From: a virus | Direction: 5' to 3' (one strand) | UHGV virus genome: UHGV-0075716 | DNA length: 40,150 nucleotides | Shown here: positions 31,870-32,768 of the stretch, piece after piece | How positions within the stretch are numbered: the first letter of the stretch is position 1 | Layout: each line of letters starts with the position of its first letter | Translations under genes and position numbers: made by a program | Notes under the pieces: model-generated | The model's input: the letters and a program-made list of their open reading frames with translations, nothing else | The model's database searches: none | What the model was told of the DNA's origin: nothing

Positions 31870-31945
31870 ATAATACGATATGTACTTTTGGAATGCAAAC
31901 AAAAAATACATCTTGTGCATGGATGGTTTTAGTACAGAGCGTAAT
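31870..31945. promoter_or_regulatory. OR region: PR (- strand TTGCAT-17-TATTAT), PRM (+ strand, leaderless) and operator repeats
   Basis: PR -35 at 31898..31893 and -10 at 31875..31870; operator-like AGTAC-N5-GTA(c/t)T at 31872-31886 and 31931-31945. Confidence 0.6.
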
Positions 31946-31954
31946 AATAAGGAT

Positions 31955-32614
31955 ATGAAAATGAAATGGTATGAACTGGCTAGATCCAGAATGAAAGAAC
32001 TCGGCATAACTCAAGAGAAGTTAGCTGAAGAGCTTGGTATGACGCAGGGTGGAATTGGTCACTGGTTGCGCGGATCTCGTCATCCATCTCTTGACGAGAT
32101 TGGTGTGGTGTTTAAATACCTTGGTATTGATAACGTCTCATTCAACCACGACGGTACATTTTCACCTGTTGGCGAATACTCATCTGCCCCGTTAAAAAAA
32201 CAATATGAGTACCCTGTTTTTTCTCATGTTCAGGCCGGGATGTTCTCGCCTGAGCTTAGAACCTTTACCAAAGGCGATGCGGAGAGATGGGTCAGCACAA
32301 CCAAAAAAGCCAGTGATTGTGCGTTTTGGCTTGAAGTTGAAGGTAATTCCATGACCGCACCAACAGGATCCAAGCCAAGCTTTCCTGACGGGATGTTAAT
32401 TCTCGTTGACCCTGAGCAGACTGTTGAGCCAGGTGATTTCTGCATAGCCAGACTTGGTGGTGACGAGTTTACCTTCAAGAAACTGATCAGGGATAGCGGT
32501 CAGCTGTTCCTACAACCACTAAACCCGCAATATCCAATGATCCCATGCAATGATAGCTGTTCCGTAGTAGGGAAAGTTATCGCCAGCCAGTGGCCTGAAG
32601 AGACATTTAGTTAA
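31955..32614 (+). CDS. cI: CI immunity repressor (lambda-type S24 C-terminal domain, distinct N-terminal HTH); start ATG 31955 or 31961
   Basis: C-terminal half ([21 protein letters not shown]...[32 protein letters not shown]...) matches lambda cI as recalled; N-terminal HTH differs; ORF track extends upstream to 31880. Confidence 0.85.
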
Positions 32615-32645
32615 CAGCCTCACCACTCTAAAACACACAACAATA

Positions 32646-32675
32646 ACCCGACCTTAGCGTCGGGTTTTCTTTTTC
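32646..32675 (+). terminator. Rho-independent terminator after cI
   Basis: CCCGAC-CTTAGC-GTCGGG hairpin followed by TTTTCTTTTT. Confidence 0.65.
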
Positions 32676-32739
32676 CAAAATATAAATCAATAAAATACAA
32701 AGTGTTATAAAAAACTAACCGCATTTAGAACATTTTGTA

Positions 32740-32768
32740 TTGACTCAATAAAGTACACATCGTACTAT
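32740..32768 (+). promoter_or_regulatory. PL promoter with operator OL1 in the spacer
   Basis: TTGACT-17 nt-TACTAT; spacer holds AGTACACATCGTACT (32752-32766), the same motif as in PR. Confidence 0.65.

Follow-up and report, generated by a model that had tools for sequence, protein, structure and literature searches.

We examined a 40,150-bp stretch of viral DNA (hereafter the window) and found six putative operators near its repressor gene, three of them between cro and cI (OR1, OR2 and OR3) and three at the promoter PL (OL1, OL2 and OL3). Judged from sequence, these sites very probably are the OR and OL operators of a lambdoid CI/Cro switch whose immunity type is that of VT2-Sakai; the genome that carries them is a P22-like E. 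coli prophage. The putative operators are those of the CI/Cro immunity module of VT2-Sakai and of the Stx1 and Stx2-II converting phages, and as such they are already known. An earlier note on this DNA had read the repeated sequence AGTAC-N5-GTACT at both early promoters as a repressor operator. That reading is supported by the position and dyad symmetry of the sites, by a position weight matrix (PWM), by conservation, by the matching recognition helices of CI and Cro, and by prior annotation and publication. The further proposal of the note, that the motif defines immunity specificity, is an inference.

Genes, proteins and promoters around cI

The gene cI (31955..32614, plus strand) starts at the ATG at 31955 or the one at 31961, and its product contains an HTH_3 domain (Pfam, E = 8e-11) and a Peptidase_S24 domain (E = 1e-28). 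Divergent from it on the minus strand is cro (31628..31843), which encodes a protein of 71 amino acids that is likewise assigned to HTH_3 in Pfam. A gene for a cII-like activator (31219..31518, minus strand; Phage_CII, E = 6e-35) lies on the same strand as cro. On the plus strand, an intrinsic terminator (32645-32676, made up of 32645-32666 and a T-run) is found after cI and before OL3. The PL operon opens with the gene for an N antiterminator (33028..33336, plus strand; N_peptide, E = 2e-39) that carries the arginine-rich motif GNAKTRRHERRRKLAIER, and a boxB-like hairpin, GCGCTGACAAAGCGC, is present at 32834-32848. We take both the N motif and the boxB hairpin to be of the P22 type. Downstream of N, an open reading frame on the opposite strand (33358-33897, minus strand) matched the Pfam family SieB (superinfection exclusion protein B, E = 1.5e-19). 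We also observed two arrays of perfect 11-bp tandem repeats of TGGACAACCGT, at 30558-30586 (2.6 copies) and 30621-30652 (2.9 copies), both inside a replication-initiator-like gene (30148-31038, minus strand). These arrays look like origin iterons within an initiator gene, as in lambda O.

The earlier note had described CI as a hybrid repressor with a lambda-like C-terminal domain and a DNA-binding domain that is not lambda-like. The description as a hybrid was borne out by the C-terminal part: residues 82-216 are ~96% identical to lambda CI (3bdn match, E = 1e-95), and the match spans the VQAGMF cleavage region and the GNSM serine motif. The N-terminal domain should not be taken as unrelated to lambda, since it is a distant homologue in the same HTH_3 family. 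Its match to lambda CI was weak (1lli, E = 0.0038; ~30% identity over the HTH, as counted from the alignment). It is without lambda’s long N-terminal arm and helix-1 extension, and its recognition-helix residues, the first Gln excepted, are unlike those of lambda. The same domain is 35% identical to Cro over 62 residues. The recognition helices of the two proteins are near-identical (TQGGIGHW in CI; TQGAIGHW, within TQGAIGHWESG, in Cro), which is to be expected if the two read the same operators.

A consensus promoter scan identified PL on the plus strand at 32740-32768, with TTGACT (32740-45), a 17-bp spacer and TACTAT (32763-68); this promoter drives N. PR, which drives cro and cII, lies on the minus strand and consists of a -35 element TTGCAT (31898..31893), a 17-bp spacer and a -10 element TATTAT (31875..31870), and appeared in the scan in the equivalent reading TTTGCA-18-TATTAT. 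Homologues of both PL and PR are annotated as promoters in GenBank record AP005153. The predicted PRM (31920-31947, plus strand; -35 TGGATG at 31920-25, -10 TAATAA at 31942-47) corresponds to the ‘putative maintenance promoter’ of AP005153, and the consensus promoter scan of the window returned no match for it. A PRM transcript may start near the ATG at 31955, which would give a leaderless cI mRNA as in lambda.

With regard to the start of cI, the ATG at 31961 is preceded by AAGGA, and the ATG at 31955 is a possible leaderless start. GenBank entries (AP005153, phage Louie) begin the gene at the ATG equivalent to 31919. We considered this start unlikely because OR3 and the predicted PRM would then become coding sequence.

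The probable operator set and its conservation

All three copies of AGTAC-N5-GTACT reported in the earlier note were confirmed. OL1 (AGTACACATCGTACT, 32752-32766, plus strand) has perfectly symmetric half-sites and lies in the PL spacer, overlapping the -10. OR1 (AGTACATATCGTATT on the minus strand, AATACGATATGTACT on the plus strand; 31872-31886) lies in the PR spacer. OR3 (AGTACAGAGCGTAAT, 31931-31945, plus strand) lies in the predicted PRM spacer. The note had placed this third copy over the PRM -10; its position is correct, and the overlap is plausible but depends on a promoter that is itself a prediction. With one mismatch or fewer allowed, AGTAC-N5-GTACT had exactly three matches in the 40,150 bp, namely OR1, OR3 and OL1. 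Dinucleotide-preserving shuffles gave a mean of 0.40 matches and reached three in 1 of 100 cases. All three matches are beside cI, within two short regulatory regions, and none occurs elsewhere in the 40 kb. At two mismatches or fewer, there were 12 matches against 8.7 expected, which is indistinguishable from background; one of the extra matches is OL2, directly beside the PL copy.

These three sites are thus a correct but incomplete set, because three of the six operators (OR2, OL2 and OL3) had been missed. We obtained the full set by reading the regulatory regions by eye and then scanning the 40-kb window with a symmetric PWM. OR2 (AATACATCTTGTGCA, 31905-31919, plus strand) abuts the predicted PRM -35 and is upstream of the PR -35. 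OL2 (AGAACATTTTGTATT, 32727-32741, plus strand) overlaps the PL -35 by 2 bp, and the centre of OL3 (AATACAAAGTGTTAT, 32694-32708, plus strand) is 33 bp upstream of the centre of OL2. OR1-3 and OL1-3 outscored every other position in the window on the PWM. In leave-one-out scans, five of the six sites ranked 6th or better among 40,134 positions. OL1 had the best score in the window (19.4), and was accompanied by OR1 (18.4; leave-one-out rank 2 of 40,134), OL3 (16.6; rank 5) and OL2 (16.0; rank 5). OR2 was the weakest match (12.3; rank 22), and its identification rests mainly on position and conservation.

The six sites are partially symmetric over 15 bp, with the consensus A-R-T-A-C-R-N3-Y-G-T-A-Y-T. 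The consensus AGTAC-N5-GTACT given in the earlier note is right, and the longer expression is its better form. When the twelve half-sites were read inward and numbered on a 17-mer (the 15-bp core extended by a base at either end), they gave w-A-R-T-A-C-R. The A-C was present in all twelve and was followed by a purine in all twelve; A was found at position 2 in 11 of 12, and T at position 4 in 9 of 12. Centre-to-centre distances were 33 bp (OR1-OR2) and 26 bp (OR2-OR3) at OR, and 25 bp (OL1-OL2) and 33 bp (OL2-OL3) at OL. The placement relative to the promoters is regular. At PL, PR and the predicted PRM, an operator starts 5-6 bp past the -35, and the -10 (TACTAT, TATTAT and TAATAA, respectively) takes its first four bases from the 3′ half-site of that operator (GTAYT/GTAAT).

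We assessed conservation with the 80-residue CI N-terminal domain as query, which yielded 80 IMG/VR loci with domains at least 99% identical. Together with annotated phages, these loci gave 28 distinct OR and 32 distinct OL sequences. Variable columns made up 4 of 60 half-site columns, compared with 71 of 170 other columns (Fisher p = 1.3e-7, a value to be read as describing a footprint and not as a formal probability, since the sequences are closely related and columns and variants are not independent). In the 5-bp half-site blocks, none of 30 columns varied at OR and 4 of 30 varied at OL; elsewhere the corresponding values were 31 of 93 and 40 of 77. Substitutions and indels were concentrated in the cro leader, the operator centres, the PR -35 and the inter-operator spacers, and the stretch between the PL -35 and OL1 was variable as well. 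With roughly 30 naturally occurring variants of each region, OR and OL yield an in-silico footprint that refines the consensus to ARTACR-N3-YGTAYT.

The individual sites followed this pattern. At OR, the half-sites of OR1 were unchanged in the 28 variants and all 15 bases of OR3 were the same. The half-sites of OR2 were also unchanged among relatives, with centres of TCT, TAT, CCT or CAT. At OL, OL1 had conserved half-sites and a variable centre, and OL2 and OL3 were conserved. The poly-A tract between the PR -35 and OR2 (31899-31906) is 6 A long in the window and ranges from 5 to 8 A among relatives; therefore, the OR1-OR2 spacing is not fixed but runs from 32 to 35 bp.

Conservation also bears on what else the sites might be. 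One alternative is that the main regulator or the recognition unit is a different one: the sites would serve Cro only or a host factor, or only OL1, OR1 and OR3 would be functional and OR2, OL2 and OL3 would be relics. The weak match of OR2 and the variable OR1-OR2 spacing would be in keeping with this, as would the 933W switch, which works with five sites and apparently without adjacent cooperativity (PMC3317979). We nevertheless judged it very unlikely, because the half-sites are equally invariant in weak and strong sites, the recognition helices of CI and Cro match, and OR2 is placed with respect to the predicted PRM -35 as it is in lambda.

We gave little credence to a second alternative, in which the blocks owe their conservation to RNA polymerase, as promoter elements (-10-like TAnnnT and A/T-rich UP-like sequences), and the dyad is incidental. 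The regions are indeed A/T-rich, and in OL1, OR1 and OR3 the 3′ half-site does run into a -10 hexamer. However, the 5′ half-sites (AGTAC) are invariant even though they lie in spacers, where RNA polymerase constrains little, and OL3 and OR2 keep the same half-sites without overlap of the PL or PR hexamers. Moreover, the motif is symmetric, and a symmetric PWM picks out the six sites. Lastly, there is hardly any prospect that the three matches are short degenerate palindromes arising by chance in A/T-rich intergenic DNA: despite the background frequency at two mismatches and the one shuffle in 100 that reached three matches, all three fall within the two short regulatory regions on either side of cI, three further related sites adjoin them, and the sites are conserved among relatives and recur at the OL of VT2-Sakai, 2.2 kb from OR, such that conservation and position data effectively refute this explanation already.

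A model of the switch

Reading the six sites as the operators of a VT2-Sakai-type switch, we infer binding, order of occupancy, activation from OR2 and cooperativity from the positions of the sites and from the lambda paradigm. CI dimers and Cro dimers would bind the six sites through their closely similar recognition helices. CI at OL1 and OL2 would occlude PL, and CI at OR1 would occlude PR. From OR2, next to the PRM -35, CI would probably activate PRM, and Cro or excess CI would shut PRM off at OR3. The 3′ half-sites fall within -10 hexamers; therefore, a bound dimer would compete directly with sigma-70. The lambda-type C-terminal domain of CI presumably mediates dimerisation, cooperativity (pairwise as well as long-range) and self-cleavage stimulated by RecA.

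The spacing of the sites at OR is unlike that of lambda. In lambda, the centres of OR1 and OR2 are 24 bp apart, compared to 33 bp in the window (32-35 bp in relatives), which makes OR1-OR2 a poor fit to a simple copy of lambda’s cooperative OR1-OR2 pair. A search for another candidate OR2, some 24-25 bp from OR1, gave no PWM match between 31887 and 31903. Lambda-like spacing was seen instead at OR2-OR3 (26 bp) and OL1-OL2 (25 bp), and the PR -35 is covered by no operator. A VT2-Sakai-type switch might combine the cooperativity domain of lambda with an operator geometry that is not lambda’s, a tentative idea that we regard as unlikely. If it were true, cooperation at OR would link OR2 with OR3 and not OR1 with OR2; PR would be held by OR1 alone or by OL-OR looping, and autorepression of PRM would be cooperative. 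This immunity type is widespread among Stx phages, and its operator spacing differs from that of lambda.

Comparison with known immunity systems

The layout of the region is that of a generic lambdoid switch, with a multi-operator region over PR and the predicted PRM and a second set of operators at PL upstream of N. As in lambda, cI and cro are divergent, OR and OL are tripartite, the operators lie in the core promoters PR and PL, and OR2 adjoins the PRM -35. The differences from lambda lie in the sites and in the proteins that would read them. The sites here have 15-bp cores with an ARTAC half-site, and a search of the window for the lambda-type 17-bp operator (TATCACCGCCAGTGGTA, three mismatches or fewer) found none. 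OR2 does not lie over the PR -35, and its distance from OR1 is variable (32-35 bp). In addition, Cro is not of the lambda type: it is all-helical, belongs to HTH_3 and is paralogous to the N-terminal domain of CI. The window has neither lambda-type operators nor a lambda-type N-terminal DNA-binding domain, and it does not belong to the imm-lambda group.

The operator of phage 933W is also 15 bp long and rotationally symmetric about its central base pair, and positions 2-5 of its half-site are conserved as G-A-A-C, with T preferred at position 3 (PMC3317979). The half-site here resembles it (G-T-A-C / G-A-A-C); the two are similar and not the same. The 933W recognition helix has S41, K42, K46 and E51 (PMC3317979). 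Instead, the window has the helix TQGGIGHW, and six sites in place of five. We rejected assignment to a 933W-type module because the recognition helices differ, so the likeness is one of resemblance rather than membership.

The window is also comparable to 434 and P22, in that Cro and the N-terminal domain of CI are HTH_3 paralogues with near-identical recognition helices and would share partially symmetric operators. Another common feature is the lack of conservation at the operator centres, which suggests indirect readout. The half-site sequences differ from those here (ACAA in 434 and ATTTAAG in P22), and so do the C-terminal domains.

The closest likeness is to the Stx phages. Cro is identical to Cro of the Stx1 converting phage at all 71 residues (100%), and CI is identical to its Stx1-converting phage counterpart at 207 of 216 (96%), including every residue of 1-44, which cover the HTH. 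The CI DNA-binding domain is likewise the same in the VT2-Sakai RefSeq record NC_000902, save for an in-frame TAG in that record. This codon replaces the Gln codon that opens the recognition helix (MT*GGIGHW), and the record’s cI is accordingly split into a ‘fragment’ and a truncated CDS; both the window (at ~32045) and the Stx1-converting phage have CAG. The cro-cI segment matched more than 300 phage records, including the Stx1-converting phage and Stx2 phage II (strain Morioka V526), Nil2, 2851, 1717 and the PA-series Stx2a phages.

The sites themselves had been annotated before. AP005153 lists three 17-bp ‘putative operators’ at OR that map to 31872-88, 31904-20 and 31930-46 of the window, and three more putative operators at PL with 25- and 33-bp spacing. 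All six sites are present in NC_000902, at -88, -56, -30, +2141, +2174 and +2199 from the cI ATG. Yin 2015 (PMC4587872) equates the PST1 phages with the Sakai Stx2a prophage, and its Table S5 gives six putative operators that are the ‘same as’ those of E. coli O157:H7 Sakai, credited to Fattah 2000. Each operator in that table equals the direct or reverse-complement sequence of an AP005153 site, and the table seems to have swapped L and R. According to the account of Fattah 2000 in PMC10742460, the homology of VT2-Sakai CI to lambda CI is high at the C-terminus and low at the N-terminus, and VT2-Sakai shows cross-immunity with lambda. Lambda CI bound the VT2-Sakai sites weakly in EMSA, with an apparent KD of 3.7-6.4 uM (PMC10742460). 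The near-identical C-terminal domain could also, though we regard this as unlikely, allow mixed dimers or oligomers of the window CI with lambda CI; the cross-immunity between VT2-Sakai and lambda, credited to Fattah 2000 in PMC10742460, might have its explanation in such mixing. For the cognate CI or Cro on these sites, the searchable literature yielded no footprint, EMSA or virulent-mutant results, and the measurements with lambda CI were the only binding data that it returned. For a medically important Stx2 phage, papers and GenBank have carried the operators, the promoter layout and the chimeric CI since 2000-2003, and finding them in the window has little discovery value.

The window and VT2-Sakai share six operators in the same order and with the same spacing (OR 33/26 bp, OL 25/33 bp), the architecture of PL and PR, and a lambda-like CI C-terminus. 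The half-sites are identical except at OL3 (GTTAT vs GTTGT). One base of OR1 just inside the half-site differs, and the other differences are mostly central or flanking. The distance between OR and OL is ~0.8 kb here and ~2.2 kb in VT2-Sakai and the Stx1 phage. It is short in the window because only ~80 bp (32615-32693), containing the terminator, separate cI from OL3, whereas VT2-Sakai and the Stx1 phage have ~1.4 kb of extra ORFs between cI and OL. One IMG/VR relative (L066) has a ~1.5-kb insert between cI and OL.

The genomes around the module are of different kinds. VT2-Sakai is a Stx phage, and the genome here is that of a P22-like podophage similar to CUS-3, phiv205-1 and Kapi1; the closest relatives of the rest of the window are phiv205-1, CUS-3, Kapi1 and vB_EcoP-683R2. 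Homology to the PL leader of Stx phages extends through a boxA-like sequence, GGCTCTTTAA (32814-32823), and then ends. Past boxA, the PL operon has the P22-type boxB and N, in contrast to the N of Stx phages, which is annotated as similar to HK97 N. This looks like a mosaic joint placed exactly between boxA and boxB, and the cassette of cro, OR, cI, OL, PL and boxA would have moved as a unit into a P22-like phage.
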